A stretch of DNA of 55,614 bases from Gemmatimonadales bacterium. GTDB lineage: Bacteria > Gemmatimonadota > Gemmatimonadetes > Gemmatimonadales > GWC2-71-9. The stretch lies in NCBI GenBank assembly GCA_035711365.1, contig DASTCF010000086.1, positions 1 through 55,614 of the forward strand. Reading direction: 5' to 3'. Each line of letters begins with the position of its first letter. Position 1 is the stretch's first letter. The notes beneath the pieces are model-generated. The model was not told the origin of the DNA and did no database searches. It saw only the letters and a program-made list of their open reading frames with translations. This document shows positions 16,926 to 49,578 of this stretch, in pieces. A program made the translations under genes and the position numbers.

Positions 16926-17378
16926 TCATCGAAGTGCCGCCAGTTTCCGCAGTTCGCGCATCACCGCGCGCTGGGCCACCGCATCCCGCACGGCAATGAA
17001 GATCGTATCGTCGCCGGCAATCGTCCCCACCACTTCCGCCCAGGCCAGGCGATCCAGCGCCGCGCCGACACGGTTCGCTTCACCGGGTGGCGTCCGGAGC
17101 ACGATGAGCGAATCTCCCGCCGGTTCCACGCCGATCAGCCCCTCCGCGATCCGCCGCTGGTCGGGATCGTCACTCGGCCGGCCGACCACCACCGGGCGGC
17201 GATAGGCGCCGTCCACTTTCACGAGGTGCAGCGCGGAGATGTCGCGGCTGACGGAGGACTGGGTCACCTCCCACCCTTCCTGTGCCAGCGCGTCGGCCAG
17301 CTCCTCCTGGGTCCGGATGGAGCGGGTGCTGATCAGCTCCAGAATCTTCAGGTGCCGCTGGCGTCGATCGCCGGTCAC
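16926..17378 (-). CDS. argR: arginine repressor ArgR
   Basis: Winged-helix N-terminus RQRHLKILELISTRSIRTQEELADALAQEGWEVTQSSVSRDISAL and C-terminal oligomerisation/arginine-binding domain (GTIAGDDTIFI). GTG start overlaps the argH stop (GTGA). Confidence 0.9.
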   Translation of the reverse strand: MTGDRRQRHLKILELISTRSIRTQEELADALAQEGWEVTQSSVSRDISALHLVKVDGAYRRPVVVGRPSDDPDQRRIAEGLIGVEPAGDSLIVLRTPPGEANRVGAALDRLAWAEVVGTIAGDDTIFIAVRDAVAQRAVMRELRKLAALR

Positions 17379-18766
17379 GGCTTCTTCCCGGGGGGAGGGC
17401 CCGCGAGACGACGGAGGGCGGATTCGAACCGGCGGCGCTCCCGGATCGCCCAGGCCCGGGTCGCCCGCAGACGACCCCGCAGATGCGCCAGGCCGAGATT
17501 CCCGAGTCCACCTGTCGACCGGCGTCTCGCCAGGATCTCCTGCTTCGAGGGAGACGGGAATACCGCGCCTCGCGCGAGCTCATCGGCGACTTCGCGGTAG
17601 GCACGGCGAAATGGCGTGCCGGCTTCAACGCGTCGCATCACCTCGTCTGTGGCGAGGGTCCCATTGTGAATCGCGGCAGCGCAGCGCTCCCGATTGATGC
17701 TGATCGACGGCACGGCCACCACCATCATCTCGAGCATCTCCAGCGTTCGCGTCGTCCCGCGGATGAGCGGCTCCTTGAGGAGCTGGAAATCCCGGTGGTA
17801 CCCTCCGGGCAGCCCGCCTGCCAGGTACCGCACGGCGGCGTGATCCCCCGCGACTCCAGCCGAGCGCGCCCGCGTCAACTCAAACAGGTCGGGATTCCGC
17901 TTGTGAGGCATGATGCTGGACCCGGTGGAGAGCGCCACCGGCAATGTCAGGTAGCCGTACTCCTCCGCGCTGAACAGGATGACGTCCGCGCTCAGACGGC
18001 CGAGGTCATGGCCCAGCTCCCCGCACCAGGCAAGGACGGCAGCTTCGAGCTTTCCCCTTCCGAGCTGGACGGCGGCCACGTTGTGCTCGACGGCGCCGAA
18101 GCCAAGCGCCCGGGCAGTGGCCTCCCGGTTCAGGTCGAGCGGCACACCGTACCCGGCCGCACTACCGAGCGGGCAGCGGTCCACCCGCGCCCATAGCGCA
18201 GGCAGGGATTCGAGCGTGTCCAGCAGGCTTTCTCCGTATGCGGCAGCCCACAGCCCGACGCTCGAGGGCATTGCGCGCCGGGTGTGGGTGTAGCCGGGCC
18301 AGAGCACGGTGGCGTGCCGGGCGGCAAGGCGACCGAGCGCCTCGATCAGGTCCGTACCGATCGCGTGCAGTTCGAGAAGCATCTCCTTGAGGTACAGGCG
18401 GATGTCCACGGCGACCTGATCATTCCGGGATCGGCCGGTGTGCAGTTGTTCCCCGGATATTCCGTGCCGGCGCGTGAGCCAGTCCTCGACAGCGGTATGC
18501 GCGTCCTCGTGGACGAGGTCGATGGTGAGTTTGCCGTCCTCGATCGCACGGAGGGCAGCGCGCAGTCCGGCCCGCAGGCGCAGGTGCGTGCGTGTCGAAA
18601 GCAGTCGCGAGGCCCGGAGCCCTTCGACGTGCCCGAGGCTGCCGTACACATCCCACGGCAGCAGGCGCAGGTCCCACCCCCGGTCCTCGCCGATCGTATA
18701 CGTCAGCATGCGCGGGTCGATTTCCCCGGACGACCACAGCGTTCTCGGGCGGCGGCGGGGGCTCAT
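17375..18766 (-). CDS. argH: argininosuccinate lyase
   Basis: Fumarate-lyase signature GSSIMPHKRNPD. ATG at 18766 overlaps the stop of the upstream gene (ATGA). The ORF extension to 18835 is judged spurious. Confidence 0.9.
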   Translation of the reverse strand: MSPRRRPRTLWSSGEIDPRMLTYTIGEDRGWDLRLLPWDVYGSLGHVEGLRASRLLSTRTHLRLRAGLRAALRAIEDGKLTIDLVHEDAHTAVEDWLTRRHGISGEQLHTGRSRNDQVAVDIRLYLKEMLLELHAIGTDLIEALGRLAARHATVLWPGYTHTRRAMPSSVGLWAAAYGESLLDTLESLPALWARVDRCPLGSAAGYGVPLDLNREATARALGFGAVEHNVAAVQLGRGKLEAAVLAWCGELGHDLGRLSADVILFSAEEYGYLTLPVALSTGSSIMPHKRNPDLFELTRARSAGVAGDHAAVRYLAGGLPGGYHRDFQLLKEPLIRGTTRTLEMLEMMVVAVPSISINRERCAAAIHNGTLATDEVMRRVEAGTPFRRAYREVADELARGAVFPSPSKQEILARRRSTGGLGNLGLAHLRGRLRATRAWAIRERRRFESALRRLAGPPPGKKP

Positions 18767-19839
18767 TGCAGGTACGCCCGGGCGAGATCCGCGTAGAAGC
18801 GGCGCGCGGCCGTCACCTCGCGCAGGTCCACGCATTCATCCGGCGTGTGCGAGCGGCTGCTCGTCCCCGGACCGCACTTGAACCCGTCGGCCTCGCGGAG
18901 GAATACCCAGTCGGAGCAGGTCGGGCTGCCGTAATGCCGCGCCTGGGGCCGGACCCGACTGGCGGCCGCGAGAAGCGGGGAGTCCAACCTCGTCTCACAG
19001 GGCACGAGCCGGTCCGACGTCACGAGCACCTCGCAGTCCAGCGCCTGACTGAGTGCATCGGCAAGCTCGGCGTGCGTCCAGGCCGGCGTGCTTCGGACGT
19101 CGAGAATCGCCCGGGCGCGCGGTGGCGTGACATTCCGGCTTACCCCTGCTTCGACCATCGTTGGGGTGACGGTCGGATGGCCCAGCAGCAAGTGCGGCCG
19201 GTCGCGGAAGAGCCCTTCGAGTTTCACCAGATCCCGGCTCAACAGTACCAGCGCATTGGTGAACGGACCGTCCTCGCTCACCCTGCCGGCGTGGCGCTGG
19301 TCCCCGTGCGCCACGAGATCCACCATCATCAATCCCCGCTGGGCGACGGCGAAGTCGAGATTCGTCGGCTCCCCGACCACGGCCGCGTTCACCGGCCCGG
19401 CGCGGGCGACGAGGTCCGGCATGCTTGTGTTGCGCGTCTCCTCGCCGAATCCGAGGAGCAGGAGGAGGTCGCCGCGTGCCGGCCCACCCTCCTGCGCCAC
19501 GTCCATCGCGGAGACGAGCATGGCGGCGACCGACGCCTTGGCATCGCCCGCGCCACGCCCATGAAGCATGGTGCCCTCGATGACGGGTGTGAACGGGTCG
19601 CGCGTCCATCCTGCACCGGGCGGGACGACGTCGAGGTGTGACACGAACGCCAGGGTTGGGCCGGCCTTCCGCCCCGCGATGCGCAGGCGCACGCCGGTCT
19701 CATCGCGCGCGACCGGGAGCCCCCATCCCCGCACGGTCTCCTCCACAAGCCGTGCCACGCCCTCCTCGTCCCCGCTGACCGAAGGGATCGCGACCAGGTC
19801 CCGCAGGAGCAGGATTTCAGTCGGCCAGGTCGACGCCAA
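18763..19839 (-). CDS. M20-family metallo-deacylase, ArgE-like (predicted N-acyl-citrulline/ornithine deacylase)
   Basis: LLRDLVAIPSVSGDE, SHLDVVP and GRGAGDAKAS motifs of M20 peptidases/ArgE. Positioned inside the arg operon. The only in-frame start is a TTG at 19839. Confidence 0.75.
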   Translation of the reverse strand: MASTWPTEILLLRDLVAIPSVSGDEEGVARLVEETVRGWGLPVARDETGVRLRIAGRKAGPTLAFVSHLDVVPPGAGWTRDPFTPVIEGTMLHGRGAGDAKASVAAMLVSAMDVAQEGGPARGDLLLLLGFGEETRNTSMPDLVARAGPVNAAVVGEPTNLDFAVAQRGLMMVDLVAHGDQRHAGRVSEDGPFTNALVLLSRDLVKLEGLFRDRPHLLLGHPTVTPTMVEAGVSRNVTPPRARAILDVRSTPAWTHAELADALSQALDCEVLVTSDRLVPCETRLDSPLLAAASRVRPQARHYGSPTCSDWVFLREADGFKCGPGTSSRSHTPDECVDLREVTAARRFYADLARAYLQ

Positions 19840-20752
19840 GGTAGGTCGCCTTTTCCTTTCGCCCCACGATCATCGTGCCGCAGCCGGCACCAGTGAAGAC
19901 TTCGAGGAGGATCGCGTCGGGAGCACGGCCGTCGATGATGTGGGTGCGCTCGACGCCGCCCGTCGCCGCCCGAATGCAGGCCTCGACCTTGGGCCGCATC
20001 CCGCCGGCAATCGCCCCGTTGGACATCAGGCTGGCCAGGTCATCGGGGTCGGCGAATGCGACGAGGCTCGTGGGATCGTCCCGGTCCCGCAACACTCCCG
20101 GCGCCCCGGTGAGGAAGATGAGCTTCTGCGCCCGAAGCGCCACCGCCAGCGCCTCGGCGACTGTATCCGCGTTGACGTTATAGACGCGCCCGTCGTCGTC
20201 GCCCGCCAGGCTGGCCACGACCGGGACGAACCGCGCATCGAGCAGCGTGACCAGCACGCGAGGATCCACGCGGTCGATGTCGCCGACGTGTCCGAAATCG
20301 AGCGTGATCGAAGCGCCCGAGTCATCCACTGTCTGGACCGGAGGGCGGCGGTGCGCCGTGAGCAGGTCGGCATCCACTCCGCTCAATCCGACCCCCTGCA
20401 CATGGTGTTCGCGCAACGCGGCGAGGAGATCCACGTTGAGCTGCCCGGCGTAGACCATCTTGGCAACGCCCAGCGCCTCGTCGTCGGTCACCCGGCGGCC
20501 GGCGACCATCCGCGGCTCGTGCCCCAGCCGCCGGCTCAGGGCGGTCGCCTGCGGCCCTCCGCCATGGACCACCACGAGACGGATGCCGAGACTGGAAAGC
20601 AGCGAGACCTGGGCGGCCACTCCATCGAGTGCCTCGAGGTCCGCGAGCACTTCGCCGCCCAGTTTCACCACGAAGACCTGGTCGCGATAGGCGCGAACGT
20701 AACGCAGGGCCCCCTTGAGGCCAGCGATGCCCTTTGAAGTGTCGATCGACAA
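19817..20752 (-). CDS. argB: acetylglutamate kinase (no fused GNAT domain)
   Basis: Amino-acid-kinase motifs VVKLGGEVL, VVHGGGPQ, NVNADT. No in-frame ATG downstream of the argF' stop. TTG at 20752 is preceded by GGAGGAG (20760-20766). The longer ORF to 21055 overlaps argF'. Confidence 0.8.
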   Translation of the reverse strand: MSIDTSKGIAGLKGALRYVRAYRDQVFVVKLGGEVLADLEALDGVAAQVSLLSSLGIRLVVVHGGGPQATALSRRLGHEPRMVAGRRVTDDEALGVAKMVYAGQLNVDLLAALREHHVQGVGLSGVDADLLTAHRRPPVQTVDDSGASITLDFGHVGDIDRVDPRVLVTLLDARFVPVVASLAGDDDGRVYNVNADTVAEALAVALRAQKLIFLTGAPGVLRDRDDPTSLVAFADPDDLASLMSNGAIAGGMRPKVEACIRAATGGVERTHIIDGRAPDAILLEVFTGAGCGTMIVGRKEKATYLGVDLAD

Positions 20753-20771: not shown

Positions 20772-21791
20772 TCACGCCCCGTTGCGGAGCAATGCGAGCA
20801 GAAGCGCCCGCTGCACGTGCAGGCGATTCTCCGCTTCATCCACCACGACGGCATTGGGTCCATCGAGGACCGCGTCGTCGATTTCCACGTTGCGGCGGAC
20901 GGGCAGGCAGTGCATGACGATCGCCTTGCCGTTCCGCGTCGCACGAACCCGGTCCGCCGTGAGCCGCCAATCCCGGTGCCGGTCGAAATAGGAGCGCTGC
21001 TGTTCCGGGTGCCCATAGAAGGCCACCGGCCCCCACGACTTGGCATACACGGCATCCGCCCCCGACATCGCCGCGTCCTGATCGTTCACTATGGTCACGG
21101 GGCGGGCGCCGGCCTCCCCTGCCGTGGCCTGGATCACCTGCATGTCCTCCGGGTCCAGATCGCACCCCTCGGGCGCCGCGATGGTGACGTCCATCCCCAT
21201 GCGGGCGGCGGCGAGGGCTGCGCTGACCGGCACCGCCGTGGGCAGCGCCTTCGGGTGCCACGCCCATGTGAGCACGAAGCGCTTCCCATGAGTCTCCCCA
21301 AGCCGTTCGCGCAGAGTGAACGCGTCCGCAAGCTCCTGGCACGGATGGCGCCGGGCAGATTCCAGGTTGATCACCGGCCGCTCGCAGTGCTGCGCAAACT
21401 TCCGGATCACCGCGTCCTTCCTGGCCGCGGCCCATTCCGCGCCGCGGGGAAAGGCGCGCACCGCGAGGGCATCTGCGTAGCGCCCTAGCACGCGCGCGGC
21501 CTCCGTCACGTGCTCGACGGAGTCCTGGTCCATGACTACCCCGTCCTCGGTCTCGAGCGCCCAGCTGCCCTTCCCAGGTTCCAGCACCACGGCGTGCCCG
21601 CCGTGAAGAAACATCGCGGCCTCGAAGCTGGTGCGGGTGCGGAGGCTCGGATCGAGGAACACCATCGCCAGGATCTTCCGCTCCAGGCCTCCCTTTATCT
21701 CGCCCCGCTTCACGCGAGCCGCCAGCTGGAAGAGCGCCTCGATTTCGCCGGGCGACCAATCCTCCACTGCCAAAAAGTCGCGCTTGGTCAC
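20772..21791 (-). CDS. argF': N-acyl-L-ornithine carbamoyltransferase (AOTCase/SOTCase family, not classical OTCase)
   Basis: DPSLRTRTSFE (carbamoyl-phosphate site), RHPCQELAD, YAKSWG, MHCLPVRRNVEIDDAVLD, DEAENRLHVQRALL. From memory, these follow the Xanthomonas/Bacteroides N-acyl-ornithine transcarbamylase pattern nearly residue for residue. GTG start overlaps the argD stop (GTGA). Confidence 0.8.
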   Translation of the reverse strand: MTKRDFLAVEDWSPGEIEALFQLAARVKRGEIKGGLERKILAMVFLDPSLRTRTSFEAAMFLHGGHAVVLEPGKGSWALETEDGVVMDQDSVEHVTEAARVLGRYADALAVRAFPRGAEWAAARKDAVIRKFAQHCERPVINLESARRHPCQELADAFTLRERLGETHGKRFVLTWAWHPKALPTAVPVSAALAAARMGMDVTIAAPEGCDLDPEDMQVIQATAGEAGARPVTIVNDQDAAMSGADAVYAKSWGPVAFYGHPEQQRSYFDRHRDWRLTADRVRATRNGKAIVMHCLPVRRNVEIDDAVLDGPNAVVVDEAENRLHVQRALLLALLRNGA

Positions 21792-22960
21792 GCCAGAACC
21801 TCGCGCAATCCGCCCAGGAGGCGGTCGGCCTCGGAGATCGAGAACGAGAGCGGTGGCAGCAGGCGCAGCACGTTCGGATCGGCAGAGGTGCCGGTCAGGA
21901 TCCGGTGGGCGAAGAGCGCCGATTGAATCTCCCTGGCGCTCCGGCCGAAATCGAGCCCCAACAGCAGTCCACGGCCCCAGACTCTCCGGGCGCCGAGGGC
22001 GAGCGCACCGGCCGTGAGGTGGGCGCCGACCCGGCGGGCATTGGCCGGCAGCTGCTCGTCGGCCAGAACATCGAGTGTCGCCAGTGCCGCGGCACAGGGG
22101 ACCGGTCCGCCGCCGAAGGTGCTGCCGAGATCGCCCACTGCGATGCCCTCAGTCACGTCCTGGGTCGCGATGACGGCACCGATCGGTATCCCCGAGGCAA
22201 GACCTTTTGCCAGGGTCAGGAGGTCAGGCGTGACCCCGAAGGACTCGGCGGCTGTGAACTGACCGGTCCGGCCCACGCCGCACTGTATCTCATCGAAGAT
22301 GAGCGCGACGCCGCGCTCGGTGCAGATCCGCCGGGCGGCATGGAGGAACTCGGCGCTGCAATCCCTCGCGCCAGCCATGCCCTGCACCGGCTCCACGATC
22401 AGTGCCGCGATGGACTCATCGAGGACCGCATCGAGTGACGCCACATCGTTGAACGCCACGCGGCGCGAGAGCGCGATGCCGGCCCGGCGGGCGGTTGCCT
22501 CATAGCCGGGGCCATCGCAACACGCGAGGGTGGCCACCGTTCGCCCGTGCCATCCTCCGGTCACCGAGGCGACCGCGATCCGCCCGGTCCTGCGGCGTGC
22601 CAGGTGCAGGGCATTCTCGTTGGCTTCCGCCCCCGAATTGCAGAAGAACACCCGGTCGAGCGGTTCGGGACACAGTTCCGCCAGCCGGGCGGCCAGCCGT
22701 TCCCGGTTGGGATGCGGGACAGCGGTGGAGTAGAACAGCAGCCGCGCGGCCTGATCCGCGATCGCCTGCACGACGCGCGGATGGCTGTGGCCGGTCGCGG
22801 CGACGGCATGCCCGCCGTAGGCGTCCAGCCACTCAAGACCGTCCTCGTCGATCAGCCAGGAGCCGCGGCCCGACACCGGTCGCACCGGCATCTGGGCATA
22901 GACCGGCAGCAGGGCCGACCCGCCGGCGTTTTTCGATGCCCGCTGCTCGGCCTTCAGCAT
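21788..22960 (-). CDS. argD: acetylornithine (N-acyl-ornithine) aminotransferase, class-III PLP enzyme
   Basis: FCNSGAEANE, DEIQCGVGRTG and TLAKGLASGIPIG (PLP-lysine region). ATG at 22960 overlaps the argC 3' end by 7 nt. Confidence 0.9.
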   Translation of the reverse strand: MLKAEQRASKNAGGSALLPVYAQMPVRPVSGRGSWLIDEDGLEWLDAYGGHAVAATGHSHPRVVQAIADQAARLLFYSTAVPHPNRERLAARLAELCPEPLDRVFFCNSGAEANENALHLARRRTGRIAVASVTGGWHGRTVATLACCDGPGYEATARRAGIALSRRVAFNDVASLDAVLDESIAALIVEPVQGMAGARDCSAEFLHAARRICTERGVALIFDEIQCGVGRTGQFTAAESFGVTPDLLTLAKGLASGIPIGAVIATQDVTEGIAVGDLGSTFGGGPVPCAAALATLDVLADEQLPANARRVGAHLTAGALALGARRVWGRGLLLGLDFGRSAREIQSALFAHRILTGTSADPNVLRLLPPLSFSISEADRLLGGLREVLA

Positions 22961-23982
22961 GGGAATGCGCCCGTCAGCCGGAGCCCCGCCCGCTCGTCGA
23001 GCCCGAGTGCGAGGTTCATCGCCTGCACCGCCTGGCCGCCGGCGCCCTTGATGAGATTGTCGAGCACGACCATGACCTGCACCTCTCCAGTGGTGGCGTC
23101 GCCCGCGGCGTGCAGATGCACCTCATTGGTGCCGACGACGTGGGTGAGTTCAGGGGGCTGTGCGAGCACGCGGACGAACGGCCGGCCGCGGTAGGCCGCG
23201 GCGTACCGATCGGCCACTTGGCCGGCCGCGGCGCCGGAAACCGTGGCGTGCATCGTGAGGTGGATCCCGCGCACAAATGGACCGGAGTGCGTCATGAGGC
23301 GGGCGACCGCATCGGTCCGACCGGTCCACTCCCGCCACGCTTGCAGGACTTCGGCCTCGTGACGATGGCCCAGAACCGAGTAAGCGAAGAGATTATGCGC
23401 CCTGGTCGGGTGGTGGGTCGTGGCCTTCGGGTGAACGCCCGCACCGCTCGAGCCGGTCACCGCGAAGAGCGCCGGGATTCCCGTCACGCCAAGGGTCGCC
23501 AACGGATGGAGCGCCAGCTGCGCCGCGGTTGCGAAGCAGCCCGGCGCCGCGAGCGCAGTCGCACCGGCAAGCCTTTGCCCCATCACATCCGCGAGCGCAT
23601 ACGTGAAGCGGGTCACGAACTCCGGCGCGGCATGCGGCCCATAGAACCGCTCGTAGAGCCGGAGGTCGCGCACCCGGAAGTCGGCGGCCAGGTCGACGAC
23701 CAACCCGGGCGCGGCCTCGAATACTTCGGATGCCACCCGCGCGGATTCCCCATGCTCGAGCGCGAGAAACACGACATCCCGGTGCCGGGCGGCCTCTCCG
23801 GCCCCGAGCCCGCTGAACCGCGCGTCGGTGAGGCTCGCGAGTGCCGGGTGGATGTCGGCGATCGGCTTGCCGGCCTGGCTCCGGCTTGTGGCGACGAGCT
23901 CGGTCACCTCCGGATGCTGCAACAGGATGCGGAGCAGCTCACCGCCGACGTAACCGGCCCCCCCGATCAGGGCCGCTCTCAC
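22954..23982 (-). CDS. argC: N-acetyl-gamma-glutamyl-phosphate reductase
   Basis: N-terminal GGAGYVGGELLR NAD(P) loop and active-site PGCFATAAQLAL. GTG start overlaps the stop of the upstream P-loop gene (GTGA). Confidence 0.9.
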   Translation of the reverse strand: MRAALIGGAGYVGGELLRILLQHPEVTELVATSRSQAGKPIADIHPALASLTDARFSGLGAGEAARHRDVVFLALEHGESARVASEVFEAAPGLVVDLAADFRVRDLRLYERFYGPHAAPEFVTRFTYALADVMGQRLAGATALAAPGCFATAAQLALHPLATLGVTGIPALFAVTGSSGAGVHPKATTHHPTRAHNLFAYSVLGHRHEAEVLQAWREWTGRTDAVARLMTHSGPFVRGIHLTMHATVSGAAAGQVADRYAAAYRGRPFVRVLAQPPELTHVVGTNEVHLHAAGDATTGEVQVMVVLDNLIKGAGGQAVQAMNLALGLDERAGLRLTGAFPC

Positions 23983-25037
23983 CTCGCCTCCAGAGCAGCC
24001 CGCACGACGCCGAGAAGGCCATCGGCGTCGCGCAGCGCATTGTGAGCCGGTATGCCGAGTGAGGCCCGGATGTAGTCGCGGCCGACTTCATTGTCGGTCG
24101 CCGGACCGGTGAGCGCGGTGATGGAAAGGCCGAAGGTGTGGCGCATGAGCTGGTCGGCGCCCCAACACCCGACCGGATCGGGTGCCGCCATCACCCACGC
24201 GGCACCGAGCCGCGACAGGTCAGGATCGCGGAGGATATCCTGAACGCCGTACTCGCCCAGAATGCCATCTCCCAGCTCGGCGACAATGACGTCCGGGCGG
24301 GCGGATTTCATGAGCCGGTTGAATATCCCCTTCGCGACGGGTACGGTCATCCCGGCCCGCGTGCTCGCCGCCCCGGCATCGTTGAACGTCAACGCCACGG
24401 CCGCTCCGGCGTCCTGCATCGCCAGGGTGTCCCGCATCAGGGACACGCCGGTCAGCTTGGCGGCGGCGACCTTCAGACCGCTCCGCGCGAGCCCCCGCAC
24501 CAGTTCGGTCGCGGCCACGGTCTTGCCAGCGTTCATGCACGTCCCGGCCACATAGACAACCGGCACCGAGCCTTCGAGGACTTCCGCCGTGGGCACCGCG
24601 CTGTCCCGAATGTGCGCCGGGCGCCCGATCCGATCCCCAAGGGCAGGAAACGCCAGGATCGCTCCGAGCACCTCCGCCTTGAATGGCGGTCCGATCTCGG
24701 GGTTCATCGACGTGCAGCGGCCGAGAATCCCGCCGAGGTTCAGGACTTCGATGGTGTCCCCAACGGCAAGGTGGGACGGCACCTCACCGGCGTAGCCGCG
24801 GAGGGCCCGTCGACTGCCGAGCGTCCCGGCCAGGACGTCGCCCTTGCGCAGCGAGACCATTCGCCCTGACAGGTCTTCCACGGTGTTGTACGTAGACTTG
24901 TCCTCGAGAATCCGGACCGCGAGGACATACCCCTCAGCGGCCAGGATGTCGTTCCCCACGATCACCTCAGGCGAGAGGTGCGCGTTCCGGGTCGAGGAGG
25001 CGATGCGGTCGAGGCGGACACGGGTCGTGGTGACCAT
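23979..25037 (-). CDS. uncharacterised protein: ~150-aa N-terminal domain plus BioD/DUF1611-like P-loop domain (GTCMNAGKT)
   Basis: 352 aa. Walker-A-like VAGTCMNAGKTVAATELVRGLARSGLKV followed by VAELGDGILGEYGV. Translationally coupled on both sides (TGATG with argG, GTGA with argC). No arg-pathway family motif recognised. Confidence 0.7.
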   Translation of the reverse strand: MVTTTRVRLDRIASSTRNAHLSPEVIVGNDILAAEGYVLAVRILEDKSTYNTVEDLSGRMVSLRKGDVLAGTLGSRRALRGYAGEVPSHLAVGDTIEVLNLGGILGRCTSMNPEIGPPFKAEVLGAILAFPALGDRIGRPAHIRDSAVPTAEVLEGSVPVVYVAGTCMNAGKTVAATELVRGLARSGLKVAAAKLTGVSLMRDTLAMQDAGAAVALTFNDAGAASTRAGMTVPVAKGIFNRLMKSARPDVIVAELGDGILGEYGVQDILRDPDLSRLGAAWVMAAPDPVGCWGADQLMRHTFGLSITALTGPATDNEVGRDYIRASLGIPAHNALRDADGLLGVVRAALEAR

Positions 25038-26233
25038 CAGGCACCCCGCCCTGCCCGGCGGGCCAGCAGCGACGGAATGGCCGCCACCCGGGCAAAATCG
25101 CGGGCCTCCTCCCCGGTCCAGAGCAGGTTCTCCTCGCCATACGTGGCGACGGAACGATCCATCATCGAGTGGGGACTCCGAGCGCCCACCACCTGGAACC
25201 TGCCGGGGGCGAATCGCACTCGCGTCTCGCCGGTGACGCGGCTCTGGGAGCTCGTGATGAGCGCCTCGATATCTCGGAGCGCCGGGTCAAAGTACTGACC
25301 CTCGTGCAGGCGGTCACCGTAGAAGCGGGCAAGCTGGTCCTTCCAGAACGCCTGCCACTTGGTGAGCACGAGCTTCTCCAGCTCGCGATGGGCACCGATC
25401 AGGACCAGCGCGGCACCGGCCTCGAAGCCGATCCGGCCCTTGATGCCCAGCGCGGTTTCGCCGACGTGAATCCCGCGCCCGAAGCCGTACGCGGATGCGA
25501 GGGCGTTCAGCGACTCGACCAGCTCCGGACCGGCAAGCGGAGTTCCGTCGAGGGCGACCGGCAGTCCCTGCTCCCAGTGCAGGACGACTTCGCGAGGTGC
25601 AGGGGGGTCGGCGGGAGGATCAAGCAGTTCCGGCGGCGGGCCGGCCCACGAATCGTGAGTCCACCCTCCGCCCCACGTCGTGCCCCACAGGCCGGCATTG
25701 ACGGAATAGGAGCCGGCCCGGGCCGGAACCGGGAGCTTCCGTTCGTTGAGATACGCGATCGCCTGGTCGCGGGTGAGCCCTTCCTCGCGGATGGGCGTCA
25801 CAATCTCCAGTTCGGGCGCGAGGACGCGGAGCGCGACATCGAAGCGCACCTGGTCGTTGCCGGCGCCCGTGGATCCGTGTGCCACGGCGCGTGCCCCGAT
25901 GGCCCGGGCCACCCCCACCACAGAGATCGCCTGCTGGGTGCGCTCGGCGGCGACACTCAGCGGATAAACCTCCCCGCGGAGCACGTTGCCCTGGATCAGG
26001 TAGCGGACGAATTCGTCAAAGACCTGCTGGCGGGCATCCACGTCGTGGTGTTCGACGGCTCCCACCGCGGTGGCCTGGCGGCGGATCGCGTCGCGCTCCG
26101 CCGGGCCAGCGCCGCCCGTATTGACGTATACGGTGTGGACCGCCCAGCCCTGCTCGCGCAGGCGGGGCACGCAGTAGGACGTATCGAGCCCGCCGGAGAA
26201 CGCGAGGGCGATGGAGCCGCGCTGAGTTTGCAT
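25037..26233 (-). CDS. argG: argininosuccinate synthase
   Basis: ATP-pyrophosphatase motif AFSGGLDTS, plus GSTGAGNDQVRF. ATG at 26233. Confidence 0.92.
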   Translation of the reverse strand: MQTQRGSIALAFSGGLDTSYCVPRLREQGWAVHTVYVNTGGAGPAERDAIRRQATAVGAVEHHDVDARQQVFDEFVRYLIQGNVLRGEVYPLSVAAERTQQAISVVGVARAIGARAVAHGSTGAGNDQVRFDVALRVLAPELEIVTPIREEGLTRDQAIAYLNERKLPVPARAGSYSVNAGLWGTTWGGGWTHDSWAGPPPELLDPPADPPAPREVVLHWEQGLPVALDGTPLAGPELVESLNALASAYGFGRGIHVGETALGIKGRIGFEAGAALVLIGAHRELEKLVLTKWQAFWKDQLARFYGDRLHEGQYFDPALRDIEALITSSQSRVTGETRVRFAPGRFQVVGARSPHSMMDRSVATYGEENLLWTGEEARDFARVAAIPSLLARRAGRGA

Positions 26234-36705: not shown

Positions 36706-37596
36706 ATGGGGTTTCGCCTTCCTTTGCTCCTCATCCTGCTTGCGGCCATCCCCTGGCCCACGGCGGCGCAGGGTCGGATCGAGCGCGGCCTGGCGATCTC
36801 GCCCGAGGCGGCGGTGAGGGTGTTCAACCTGGCCGGCACCGTTCGGGTGACCGCATGGGATCGCGACAGCATCGCAGTCACTGCCAGCGTCCCGAAGGGA
36901 GGAGGCTCCTTCTATTTCGGCGGGAGCGCGGCCGCCGTCAAAATGTCGGTCGAACCGCCGCCGGGGGTTGCGACGGTGCCAGGCTCGGTGATCGAGGTCA
37001 AGGTTCCGCCTCGCACGCGGGTGTGGGTCAAGACCGAGAGCGCGGAAATCCTGGTCAGCGGCCTGACCGGATCGGTGGACCTCTCCACCGTCAGTGGGCG
37101 AATCTGGGTGGAGGGAAGCCTCCGCCAGCTTGCCGCCGAGTCGATGGATGGAAGCGTCCAGGTTGACGGTCAGAATGGGCTGGTCCGGCTCCGGAGCGCG
37201 AGTGGTACGCTCGTGCTCCGTGGCACGGCGGAGGACGCCACCCTGACCACCGTCAGCGGCACGGTTGCCGTCGGGACGCACCTGCTGGGGCGGGGTCGCT
37301 TCGAGTCGGTGAGCGGAGGGATTTCCTTCAAGAGCGGTCTCGCGGCCGGCGGTTCCTTCACCTTTGAGAGTCATAGCGGCGATATCGAGCTGCGGTTATC
37401 CCCGTCCGCGGACGCCGCGCTCGACCTCACCGCGGTCGAGGGCCGCATCGTCAATGAGTACAGCAAGCAGCAGCCCAGGACTGGCCGGAGTGGCAAGGGG
37501 CAGGTCCTGACTCTCTTCCGTGGGCAGGGAGCCGCCGACGTCGTGGCCCGGACCTTCAAGGGGACGATCTCGGTGCAGCCCCAAACGATTCCCTGA
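36706..37596 (+). CDS. DUF4097-like beta-strand-repeat protein (putative adhesin family)
   Basis: Signal peptide. Repeated G-x-I/V-x-V strand motifs (GTVRVTAWD, GSVDLSTVSGRIWVEG, GDIELRL) typical of the third gene in ECF sigma/anti-sigma operons. Confidence 0.6.
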   Translation: MGFRLPLLLILLAAIPWPTAAQGRIERGLAISPEAAVRVFNLAGTVRVTAWDRDSIAVTASVPKGGGSFYFGGSAAAVKMSVEPPPGVATVPGSVIEVKVPPRTRVWVKTESAEILVSGLTGSVDLSTVSGRIWVEGSLRQLAAESMDGSVQVDGQNGLVRLRSASGTLVLRGTAEDATLTTVSGTVAVGTHLLGRGRFESVSGGISFKSGLAAGGSFTFESHSGDIELRLSPSADAALDLTAVEGRIVNEYSKQQPRTGRSGKGQVLTLFRGQGAADVVARTFKGTISVQPQTIP

Positions 37597-37657
37597 CCGC
37601 CGGCATCCAAGGGAACGAACCCGGAAGTCATCGAACCCTGTCCCGGAGGATGCCGTC

Positions 37658-38230
37658 ATGCGTCATCGAATCCTGACACCGGCCCTGGCCCTCGCCGGCC
37701 TGCTGGCCGCAACGCCCGCCCACGCCGGCCCGCCGTGGATTTCAATCGAGCTCCCGGCGAACCCGCTCGACGCGACGACCCGCGGGGCGTACCTGCTCGT
37801 TCACACCTTCCACCACGAGACCGTCGTGCGGCAGTACCTCGAGGGCCGCGCGGAGGGAATGGTGAACGGCAAGCGAGTGACTGTGCCGCTCAGTTTCACC
37901 CTTACCTCCCGCGACAACGTGAGGGCCCTGAAGAAGAATTGGGCTTCCGAGGGCGCCTGGGTGCTCGTCCTGACCGCGGGCGGCCCGGAGGGCGCCACCG
38001 CGCTGGTTGGCATCGGTACAGACGGCGAGGTCCGCTCGATCAAGGTCCCTTCGCGGAATGAGCGTGGCTATACGGTGCCGACCAAGGTCACCCCGGCCGA
38101 TGTGGACGCCGCCCTGCGGCAGATGGTGGCACTGGATTCCCCGAGCCAAGCCCCGGCCGGCCGTGACCTGGCGCTCGGACTCCTGCTGGCGGTGCCCGCC
38201 GGCGCGTTGATCTTTCGCCGTCGCGGTTGA
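37658..38230 (+). CDS. secreted protein of unknown function with C-terminal hydrophobic anchor plus RRR tail
   Basis: ATG at 37658, 7 nt after GGAGGA. Signal peptide MRHRILTPALALAGLLAATPAHA. C-terminus LALGLLLAVPAGALIFRRRG. The ORF part 37520-37657 is judged spurious. Confidence 0.6.
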   Translation: MRHRILTPALALAGLLAATPAHAGPPWISIELPANPLDATTRGAYLLVHTFHHETVVRQYLEGRAEGMVNGKRVTVPLSFTLTSRDNVRALKKNWASEGAWVLVLTAGGPEGATALVGIGTDGEVRSIKVPSRNERGYTVPTKVTPADVDAALRQMVALDSPSQAPAGRDLALGLLLAVPAGALIFRRRG

Positions 38231-47950: not shown

Positions 47951-48920
47951 TCTCTGCCACACCCTCACGGGAGCCGCACTGGCTCAGGCCGGGCTCAAGC
48001 GCCGGACCGCCCTTGGCGCCGCCACGCTCATCATCGCGGCCAATCTGCCGGACGTGGACATCCTCTCCTATTTCCGCGGGGAGACATTCGCGCTCAGCTT
48101 CCGCCGCGGATGGACGCACGGGATCCTCGCCCTGCTCGTCTGGCCCTGGATCCTGGCCGGCGTGATGCTCGCGTTCGACCGGACCTTTACCCGGCGCGGC
48201 GCCCGATTCGGACCACTTCTGCTTCTCGCGGCCGTCGGGATTCTCAGTCACCCGCTGCTCGACTCACTGAACACCTACGGCGTCCGCTGGTTGATGCCGT
48301 TCTCCGGCCGCTGGTTCTACGGCGACACCCTCTTCATCGTGGACGTGTGGGTGTGGCTGGTGCTCGCGGCGGGACTGGTGTGGAGCACAAGGCGGGAGCG
48401 GAAGGGGCGCGCCGATTGGGCGCAACCCGCGAAGGCGGCGCTCCTCACGGCCACGGTCTACGTCGCCATCATGGCGACGCTCGGCCGGCTGGCGGAAGGC
48501 CAGGTGCGCTTCGAGCTACGCGGGCAGGGCGGTTCGCCCCGCGACATCCTGGCCTCGCCGCTGCCGGTCACCCCGATCGAGCGCGAGGTCGTCGTTGCGG
48601 AGCCGGACGGGTTTCGGGTCGGGACCATCCGGGTGGGCGGCAGCTTCCAGGAGCAAGGCCGATGGCCGCACCTTGGGGACGGCGGACCGGCTGTCGCCGC
48701 CGCGGCCGACCGGCCCGACGCGAGGGCGTTCCTCGCCTGGGCGCGCTACCCGACCTTCCTGGTCGACCGCCGGGGTGGGATGACGATCATTCACTTCATC
48801 GACCTGCGCTATGCGCGGGCCCCGGGACCGGGATTTGGTACCCTCGCCGTCCCGCTTACAGTCGGCCAGATGGCACGGACCGAGGCTCGCGAACCGAGGG
48901 ACGTTACCCGCCGCGAGTGA
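47943..48920 (+). CDS. membrane-bound metal-dependent hydrolase, YdjM/DUF457 family
   Basis: N-terminus DNLCHTLTGAALAQAGL...IIAANLPDVD and His-rich TM segments. GTG start overlaps the kinase 3' end by 8 nt. Confidence 0.7.
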   Translation: MDNLCHTLTGAALAQAGLKRRTALGAATLIIAANLPDVDILSYFRGETFALSFRRGWTHGILALLVWPWILAGVMLAFDRTFTRRGARFGPLLLLAAVGILSHPLLDSLNTYGVRWLMPFSGRWFYGDTLFIVDVWVWLVLAAGLVWSTRRERKGRADWAQPAKAALLTATVYVAIMATLGRLAEGQVRFELRGQGGSPRDILASPLPVTPIEREVVVAEPDGFRVGTIRVGGSFQEQGRWPHLGDGGPAVAAAADRPDARAFLAWARYPTFLVDRRGGMTIIHFIDLRYARAPGPGFGTLAVPLTVGQMARTEAREPRDVTRRE

Positions 48921-49578
48921 CCCCGGCCCGCAGGAGCGGCTCGAGGGCCGGCCAGATGTTCCCCGCCATCCTGCGATGCCCCTCGGGCGTTGGATGAATT
49001 CCGTCGGCCTGGTTCAGGGAATCGACCCCGGCCACACCCTCCAGCACAAATGGAACCAGCGGGATACTGTTTGCGGCGGCGACCGCCCGGTACGCCTCTC
49101 GGAACCGGGAAGTGTACGATGCCCCCAGGTTGGGCGGCGCCTCCATCCCCAGCAGCAGGATCTCCGGTGCCGGATTCCGGCTGCGTGCCAGGTCAATCAC
49201 CGCCTGGATGTTGGCCCGCAGCTCACCCGGATCGAGACCACGGAGTCCGTCGTTCCCACCGGTCTCCAATACGAGCACCGCGACTGGCTGCTGGAGCAGC
49301 CAGGCGGCCCGCTTGGCAGCGCCCGCCGAAGTCTCGCCACTCACGCCACGATTGAGCACCCGGTAGTCGTAGCCCGCCGAATCGATCATGTGCTGGAGCA
49401 CGGCGGGGTACGCCAGTTCGGGGTCAATGCCCTGCCCCGCGGCGAGGCTGGTGCCAAGCACCATCACGACCGGCAGGTCGGCGGCGCCCGGGGCCTCTGC
49501 GGGCGGGCGAACGGCGTCCGGGCGCGAGCACGCGAGGAGGCCGGCGGCCAGGAGCGAATGGCTGGATCGAAGTATCAT
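48904..49578 (-). CDS. SGNH/GDSL-family arylesterase/thioesterase (TesA-like), probable lipoprotein
   Basis: Block I VMVLGTSLAAG (GDS-like), block III ETGGNDGL, block V DGIHPTPEGH. Lipobox LLAC after the ATG at 49578. The longest ORF starts at 49611. Confidence 0.8.
   Translation of the reverse strand: MILRSSHSLLAAGLLACSRPDAVRPPAEAPGAADLPVVMVLGTSLAAGQGIDPELAYPAVLQHMIDSAGYDYRVLNRGVSGETSAGAAKRAAWLLQQPVAVLVLETGGNDGLRGLDPGELRANIQAVIDLARSRNPAPEILLLGMEAPPNLGASYTSRFREAYRAVAAANSIPLVPFVLEGVAGVDSLNQADGIHPTPEGHRRMAGNIWPALEPLLRAGVTRGG

Follow-up and report, generated by a model that had tools for sequence, protein, structure and literature searches.

The argF' gene and its product

The stretch of DNA analysed here, in the following called the window, comprises the 55,614 nucleotides of contig DASTCF010000086.1 of a Gemmatimonadales bacterium (assembly GCA_035711365.1). 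On its minus strand it carries a nine-gene arginine biosynthesis (arg) operon, in which argF', the gene in question, sits between argD and argB. A first-pass annotation had proposed from the DNA sequence alone that ArgF' follows the pattern of the N-acetyl-L-ornithine and N-succinyl-L-ornithine transcarbamylases (AOTCases and SOTCases) and not that of the classical ornithine transcarbamylases (OTCases), and that arginine synthesis may run on N-succinyl or another acyl group. Here, N-succinyl-L-ornithine is put forward as the probable substrate of ArgF', based on three signature residues and on how the engineered E92V mutant of the Xanthomonas campestris AOTCase behaves.

ArgF' is a member of the knotted N-acyl-ornithine transcarbamylases, which comprise the AOTCases and the SOTCases. 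The open reading frame translates into 339 residues with zero internal stops, and all motifs quoted in the first-pass annotation were found (DPSLRTRTSFE at residues 47-57, VMDQDSVEH at 86-94, RHPCQELAD at 148-156, YAKSWG at 249-254, HCLPVRRN at 294-301, and DEAENRLHVQ at 318-327). The carbamoyl-phosphate motifs S-x-R-T-R, H-P-x-Q, and H-C-L-P are all present, as SLRTR (49-53), HPCQ (149-152), and HCLP (294-297). The second-substrate site is composed as in AOTCase, where it consists of Glu144, Lys252, and the proline-rich H-P-K-x-L-x loop, the counterparts in ArgF' being E144, K251 within YAKSWG, and WHPKALP (178-184). The SMG ornithine loop of the OTCases was sought in the ArgF' sequence and is absent, with YAKSWG in its place. 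Against the NCBIfam equivalog model NF003384 (N-acetylornithine carbamoyltransferase) ArgF' scores 431.4 bits at a cut-off of 288, whereas it stays below the cut-offs of the OTCase models TIGR00658 (192.6 versus 280.85) and NF001986 (212.4 versus 306). The same holds for every classical OTCase, putrescine transcarbamylase, YgeW, and aspartate transcarbamylase model. Both Pfam domains, OTCace_N and OTCace, are matched. The AlphaFold2 model of ArgF' has a predicted local distance difference test (pLDDT) value of 96.5. In global alignments of the whole model with VIA-align, it superimposes on the X. campestris AOTCase structures with a Z-score of 48 and a root mean square deviation (rmsd) of 1.1-1.2 Å over 329-331 residues, and on the Bacteroides fragilis SOTCase with a Z-score of 40. 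The fit of 1.1-1.2 Å to the knotted AOTCase, over 329 residues, suggests that the C-terminal domain of ArgF' also contains the trefoil knot.

Residues determining the acyl specificity

According to the review of Shi, Allewell and Tuchman (2015; PMC4581275, section 8), the residues Glu92, Asn185, and Lys302 set AOTCase apart from SOTCase, in which the equivalent positions are occupied by A/S/P/V/Q, P, and V/I/E, respectively. Valine at position 92 has therefore already been counted among the natural SOTCase residues. A study by Shi and co-workers from 2007 is summarised in GapMind 2020 (PMC7311316) and the GapMind 2026 preprint. As reported there, the specificity of the Xanthomonas enzyme shifts to N-succinylornithine when Glu92 is replaced by A, P, S, or V, and the converse replacement at position 90 switches that of the Bacteroides enzyme. 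The corresponding E92A, E92P, E92S, and E92V mutants have been solved with carbamoyl phosphate and N-succinyl-L-norvaline, as given in the titles of the PDB entries 3L02, 3L04, 3L05, and 3L06. The rule on which the first-pass annotation had relied, glutamate for acetyl, proline for succinyl, and a shift towards succinyl with small or hydrophobic residues, can thus be traced to the 2015 review, to these PDB titles, and, at second hand, to GapMind 2020 and Appendix 2 of the GapMind 2026 preprint.

In a phmmer search of ArgF' against all PDB sequences the top eight matches are X. campestris AOTCase entries, and the highest-scoring one is 3L06, the engineered E92V mutant. Residues 4-145 of ArgF' align to the Xanthomonas enzyme without any gap and with a constant offset of 20, which corresponds to the His-tag. 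Therefore, the numbering of ArgF' in this region equals the native Xanthomonas numbering. The segment 'vmdqdsveh' of ArgF' pairs with 'vmdgdteeh', which places V92 on E92, so that the earlier by-eye assignment of valine to this position, including its codon (Table 1), was exact. A further thought had been that a neighbouring glutamate might occupy the specificity pocket. The ungapped alignment speaks against this, and E93, which adjoins V92, is invariant in an alignment of 55 family sequences (described below); the B. fragilis SOTCase has E91 at this place. Because this glutamate is common to acetyl and succinyl enzymes alike, the scenario does not apply to ArgF'.

If the gaps of the phmmer alignment are followed to the other two discriminators, ArgF' has V92/P184/E303. 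These residues are of SOTCase type at three of three positions, while the AOTCase triplet E92/N185/K302 is matched at none. In the SOTCase from B. fragilis, the succinyl moiety is anchored by H176, R178, and R278 (PMC4581275, section 5). The native B. fragilis numbering was recovered by aligning a family member to PDB entry 1JS1, and the residues P90, E142, H176, R178, P181, K236, R278, and I282 correspond to V92, E144, H179, K181, P184, K251, R299, and E303 of ArgF'. The three anchors thus become H179, K181, and R299; the exchange of arginine for lysine is conservative, and lysine is also the residue of the Xanthomonas enzyme.

Conservation of the specificity residues

The specificity residues were compared in ArgF' and its 120 closest database homologues, which are 71-95% identical to it. 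V92 and P184 are present in all 121 sequences and E303 in 120, and accordingly the complete triplet, written V-P-E in the order of positions 92, 185, and 302 of the Xanthomonas enzyme, is found in 120 of 121. Such a conservation of V92 means that the valine is no chance substitution. The anchor positions are similarly maintained, with H179 in 121 and K181 in 117 of the 121 sequences, and R299 is invariant in the 55-sequence family alignment.

This alignment covers the family more widely. It contains the 55 motif-bearing sequences that were kept from the representatives of 50%-identity clusters built from 1.8 billion proteins. V-P-E is the commonest triplet (11 representatives), followed by A-P-V (10) and S-P-V (5), and the AOTCase triplet E-N-K is present in a single representative. 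A quick maximum-likelihood tree of the family shows V-P-E sequences at seven or more separate positions. ArgF' pairs with its nearest representative, likewise V-P-E, and the sister of this pair is an A-P-V sequence (SH-aLRT 98). The E-N-K sequence falls into a small clade of its own. Judged from these sequences, valine at position 92 is a natural state that is common and recurrent in the family, and the acetyl-type enzymes are the minority.

The residues at positions 92 and 302 also covary. Of 17 cluster representatives with valine, isoleucine, or methionine at 92, 14 have glutamate at 302, and of 31 with alanine, serine, proline, or glutamine at 92, 25 have valine or isoleucine at 302, these counts being uncorrected for phylogeny. 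Each of the two combinations is spread over several separate clades of the quick tree. Threonine at 92 is mixed, with T-P-E in three representatives and T-P-I in the Pyrinomonadaceae. The recurrence of the two combinations suggests that the specificity pocket might be built in two different ways.

The arginine operon and its relatives in other genomes

The operon starts with argG and ends with argR (Table 1). ArgB scores 165 bits against the LysW-kinase model, which is below the cut-off of 223. The deacylase of the M20 family has its best PDB match in 3CT9 (155 bits), followed by several succinyl-diaminopimelate desuccinylases (DapE) with 50-90 bits. Its scores against Escherichia coli ArgE and the Xanthomonas acetylcitrulline deacetylase 2F7V are 49.7 and 36.9 bits, respectively. 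3CT9 is a protein of Bacteroides thetaiotaomicron; a literature search did not confirm that it is BT3549, for which there is genetic support as a succinylcitrulline desuccinylase, and this was not used as evidence. The profile of matches agrees weakly with a desuccinylase and does not separate succinyl-citrulline from succinyl-ornithine as substrate.

Table 1. Genes of the arg operon and specificity-related codons of argF' in the window
Feature	Position	Strand	Remarks
argG	25037..26233	minus	argininosuccinate synthase; first gene of the operon
P-loop protein gene	23979..25037	minus	predicted N-succinylglutamate synthase; weak Pfam DUF1611 and CbiA matches only
argC	22954..23982	minus	TIGR01850, 325 bits
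argD	21788..22960	minus	acetyl/succinyl-ornithine family aminotransferase
argF'	20772..21791	minus	339 residues; GTG start overlapping the argD stop; knotted-type transcarbamylase, predicted N-succinyl-L-ornithine transcarbamylase
Val92 codon (GTC)	21516..21518	minus	acyl-specificity residue; Glu92 in X. campestris AOTCase, Pro90 in B. fragilis SOTCase
Pro184 codon	21240..21242	minus	second discriminator; Asn185 in AOTCase, Pro181 in B. fragilis SOTCase; 'hpkalpta' on 'hpkplnta'
Glu303 codon	20883..20885	minus	third discriminator; Lys302 in AOTCase, Ile282 in B. fragilis SOTCase; 'rrnveidd' on 'rrnvkatd'
Counterparts of the succinyl anchors	20895..21257	minus	His179 21255-21257, Lys181 21249-21251, Arg299 20895-20897
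argB	19817..20752	minus	acyl-glutamate kinase; TIGR00761, 222 bits; TTG start at 20752 after GGAGGAG
M20 deacylase gene	18763..19839	minus	ArgE/DapE family; predicted N-succinyl-citrulline desuccinylase
argH	17375..18835	minus	argininosuccinate lyase
argR	16926..17378	minus	arginine repressor; Pfam Arg_repressor and Arg_repressor_C; last gene of the operon

A survey of one genome per prokaryotic species resulted in 80 related loci from several phyla, which were scored by tblastn with the nine operon proteins. None of these encodes the E-N-K triplet. The most frequent triplets are T-P-I (34 loci, mostly Pyrinomonadaceae) and V-P-E (23), followed by A-P-V (6), T-P-V (5), S-P-V (4), I-P-E (3), and four singletons. 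All 23 Gemmatimonadota-type loci have V-P-E, and in every V-P-E locus with a sufficiently long contig the genes follow the order of the window. The P-loop gene adjoins argF' in most of the 80 loci, and this arrangement is found in Gemmatimonadota, Acidobacteriota, Planctomycetota, Bacteroidota (Salinivenus-like), Cloacimonadota, Chloroflexota, and two genomes of the candidate phyla radiation (CPR).

These two CPR genomes are metagenome-assembled genomes of Candidatus Roizmanbacteria (L071:1-3700) and Daviesbacteria (L075:4900-9300), in which the cluster is reduced to argG, a homologue of the P-loop gene (30-32% identity), argF' (I-P-E), and argH. Homologues of argB, argC, and argD were not detectable in them at E<1e-8 within the fetched flanks. 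Another unusual locus is JAFCCW010000018.1 (L028), which is labelled Candidatus Iainarchaeum archaeon and belongs to a DPANN bin. It comprises argG, the P-loop gene, argC, argD, argF' (A-P-V, 48% identity), argB, the M20 gene, and argH. This operon is of bacterial type, and its contig is either a mis-binned bacterial one or the operon was acquired by horizontal transfer.

Phyletic distribution of ArgF' and the P-loop protein

The window genome (G000) was compared with 40 relatives (G001-G040). The tallies for these 41 genomes include the unpublished genome G015, which has the classical OTCase only; without it the denominators change (for example to 36/40 for OTCase) and the co-occurrence stays the same. 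ArgF' is encoded in 13 of the 41 genomes. Exactly those 13 also encode a close P-loop homologue, and all of them belong to the window's own family (12 of the 24 relatives in this family plus the window genome itself). ArgJ was found in 10 genomes, and these do not overlap with the 13 ArgF' genomes. The remaining 18 genomes, including all eight of family f3, show neither ArgF' and the P-loop protein nor ArgJ. ArgJ and AstA were not found in the window genome, which is 84.9% complete, and ArgA was not found above cut-off. One relative without ArgF' (G035) encodes a distant P-loop homologue (34% identity) about 11 kb away from its classical OTCase (contig C21, positions 36987-37862 and 48589-49473).

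Coexistence with a classical OTCase and an arginase

Besides ArgF' the window genome has a bona fide classical OTCase, whose gene lies on contig C12 (3943-4848, minus strand; NF001986, 456 bits at a cut-off of 306) in a neighbourhood of housekeeping type (hslU, an unknown gene, the OTCase gene, gcvT, and moaB). Of the 41 genomes, 37 have an OTCase that scores above cut-off, and of the 13 ArgF' carriers 12 do. Because of this wide presence the classical OTCase is not a contamination, and its coexistence with ArgF' is a trait of the lineage. The arginine deiminase pathway would be one reason to keep an extra OTCase. However, no arginine deiminase gene (arcA) was found in the window genome, and the OTCase gene is located among housekeeping genes. 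The genome does encode an arginase (contig C169, 4904-5779, plus strand; TIGR01229, 303.8 bits at a cut-off of 227.6). The simplest reading is that ArgF' would serve de novo synthesis and the classical OTCase would re-use the ornithine released by arginase, in which case arginase, the classical OTCase, ArgG, and ArgH could close an ornithine (urea) cycle. Such a re-use implies that free ornithine is a metabolite of this cell. Acyl-citrulline, as opposed to acyl-ornithine, is accordingly a tentative assignment for the substrate of the M20 enzyme.

The acyl group of the pathway

In the proposed pathway the P-loop protein would produce N-succinyl-glutamate, which ArgB, ArgC, and ArgD would take to N-succinyl-ornithine. 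ArgF' would then carbamoylate N-succinyl-L-ornithine at its delta-amino group, with carbamoyl phosphate as the donor, and thus generate N-succinyl-L-citrulline. After the M20 enzyme has stripped off the succinyl group, ArgG and ArgH would complete arginine. For the P-loop and M20 proteins these substrates are predicted ones. The case for succinyl has become stronger than when it was first proposed, because the three discriminators, the anchors, the conservation, the gene context, and the phyletic complementarity agree with each other. The V-P-E triplet, the operon, and the phyletic pattern all point to succinyl, the one half of the earlier proposal. The other half, a different acyl group, is possible but has gained no positive support. 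Several observations weigh against a succinyl enzyme. An assayed natural V-P-E enzyme was not found in the literature, and the lone characterised natural SOTCase, that of B. fragilis, is P-P-I and 35-37% identical to ArgF'. The counterpart of its anchor R178 is a lysine in ArgF', as in the acetyl enzyme. The switch by E92V was seen in a Xanthomonas background with N185 and K302 and is known second-hand from Shi 2007. Finally, the classical OTCase makes a flux through free ornithine possible, and ArgF' is perhaps not the sole route to citrulline.

ArgF' could instead be a true N-acetyl-L-ornithine transcarbamylase in which Val92 is tolerated and other residues of the pocket compensate. The score against the AOTCase equivalog model NF003384, the name N-acetylornithine carbamoyltransferase of the homologues, and the lysine at position 181 in place of the SOTCase arginine all fit such an enzyme, as does the closer relation to the Xanthomonas AOTCase (47-48% identity, Z-score 48) than to the B. 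fragilis SOTCase (35-37%, Z-score 40). However, NF003384 does not separate the two specificities, because B. thetaiotaomicron also matches it, and the discriminators are of non-AOTCase type at all three positions. The exchange E92V alone is reported, in the two GapMind papers, to abolish the acetyl preference. In addition, the E-N-K sequences form one small separate clade in the quick tree, and neither ArgJ nor, above cut-off, ArgA was found in the 84.9% complete window genome to donate an acetyl group. We thus regard an acetyl specificity as unlikely. An ordinary OTCase acting on free ornithine would share the transcarbamylase fold and the carbamoyl-phosphate motifs with ArgF'. This is hardly conceivable given the scores below all OTCase cut-offs, YAKSWG instead of the SMG loop, and the separate bona fide OTCase on contig C12.

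It is also to be considered that ArgF' accepts another acyl-ornithine, e.g. malonyl-, glutaryl-, or propionyl-ornithine, or both acetyl- and succinyl-ornithine, and that V92 together with E303 marks a third class. The separation into V/I/M at 92 with glutamate at 302 and A/S/P/Q with valine or isoleucine is found in several clades, and the assays of natural enzymes cover the second type only. Moreover, the pathway begins with a novel, non-GNAT protein, for which the acyl donor is a prediction. On the other hand, nothing in the operon points to an unusual acyl-CoA supply. In work by Li and co-workers from 2010, the E92V mutant reportedly binds N-succinyl-norvaline with residue 302 as a carboxylated, anionic lysine, and a pocket of this kind would be electrostatically close to V92 and E303. 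That the mutant binds N-succinyl-norvaline is also stated in the title of 3L06, and the 2015 review places V and E among the SOTCase variants (PMC4581275). Altogether, another or a dual acyl specificity appears rather unlikely. There is a slim chance that a hydrophobic or beta-branched residue at 92 with glutamate at 302 defines a third ArgF' class that prefers neither acetyl nor succinyl or is truly dual. If this were true, the protecting group for arginine synthesis in the Gemmatimonadota and several other phyla would be an undescribed one, supplied by a non-GNAT P-loop acyltransferase.

Comparison with known systems

N-succinyl-L-ornithine as substrate would have consequences for annotation. 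All named homologues of ArgF' are called N-acetylornithine carbamoyltransferase, and NF003384 passes proteins with the SOTCase signature well above its cut-off. For the Gemmatimonadota this name in the public databases is probably a systematic misannotation. The phylum would be added to the lineages predicted to make arginine via succinylated intermediates, a pathway that would otherwise look gapped in metabolic reconstructions of uncultured soil bacteria.

The specificity rule and the succinyl assignment for this type of operon have already been published and are not new, and therefore no new question is opened here. The GapMind 2026 preprint (Appendix 2) describes 70 ArgF' proteins whose genes neighbour a homologue of ACG33_RS14135 of Steroidobacter denitrificans; 90% of these ArgF' proteins have A, P, S, or V at position 92. 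It concludes that these organisms use succinylated intermediates and predicts the P-loop protein to be an N-succinylglutamate synthase. The neighbourhood is the same as in the window, with argG, the P-loop gene, argC, argD, argF', argB, sometimes argE, argH, and argR, and the argument from position 92 is identical. The Gemmatimonadota, the other two discriminators, and the coexisting OTCase are not singled out there. The results from the 41 genomes and the 80 loci reproduce this argument on different data. The perfect co-occurrence of ArgF' and the P-loop protein and the mutual exclusion with ArgJ give independent comparative support to the predicted new type of N-succinylglutamate synthase. 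In both studies the succinyl pathway is a prediction from sequences and genomes. The remaining value of the present analysis lies in the probable misannotation and in the coupling of positions 92 and 302, which can be tested.

Among the crystallised enzymes the engineered E92V mutant of the X. campestris AOTCase (PDB 3L06; wild type 3KZC and 3KZK) resembles ArgF' most closely, being collinear and 47-48% identical, with a Z-score of 48 and an rmsd of 1.2 Å over 329 residues. It has the same Val92, and its His180, Lys182, and Arg298 are equivalent to H179, K181, and R299. The engineered mutant keeps Asn185 and Lys302, whereas ArgF' naturally has Pro184 and Glu303. The B. fragilis SOTCase (PDB 1JS1, 2FG6, and 2FG7), which serves arginine synthesis via succinylated intermediates (PMC7311316), belongs to the same knotted subfamily and shares with ArgF' a residue other than glutamate at 92, proline at 185, and a residue other than lysine at 302. 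Its substrate-binding pair E142/K236 corresponds to E144/K251. The differences are an identity of 35-37%, a Z-score of 40, P-P-I instead of V-P-E, and Arg178 as anchor in place of Lys181. The two systems also differ in their first step, for which Bacteroides uses a GNAT-type enzyme (BT3761; PMC7311316) and the operon of the window has the P-loop protein instead.

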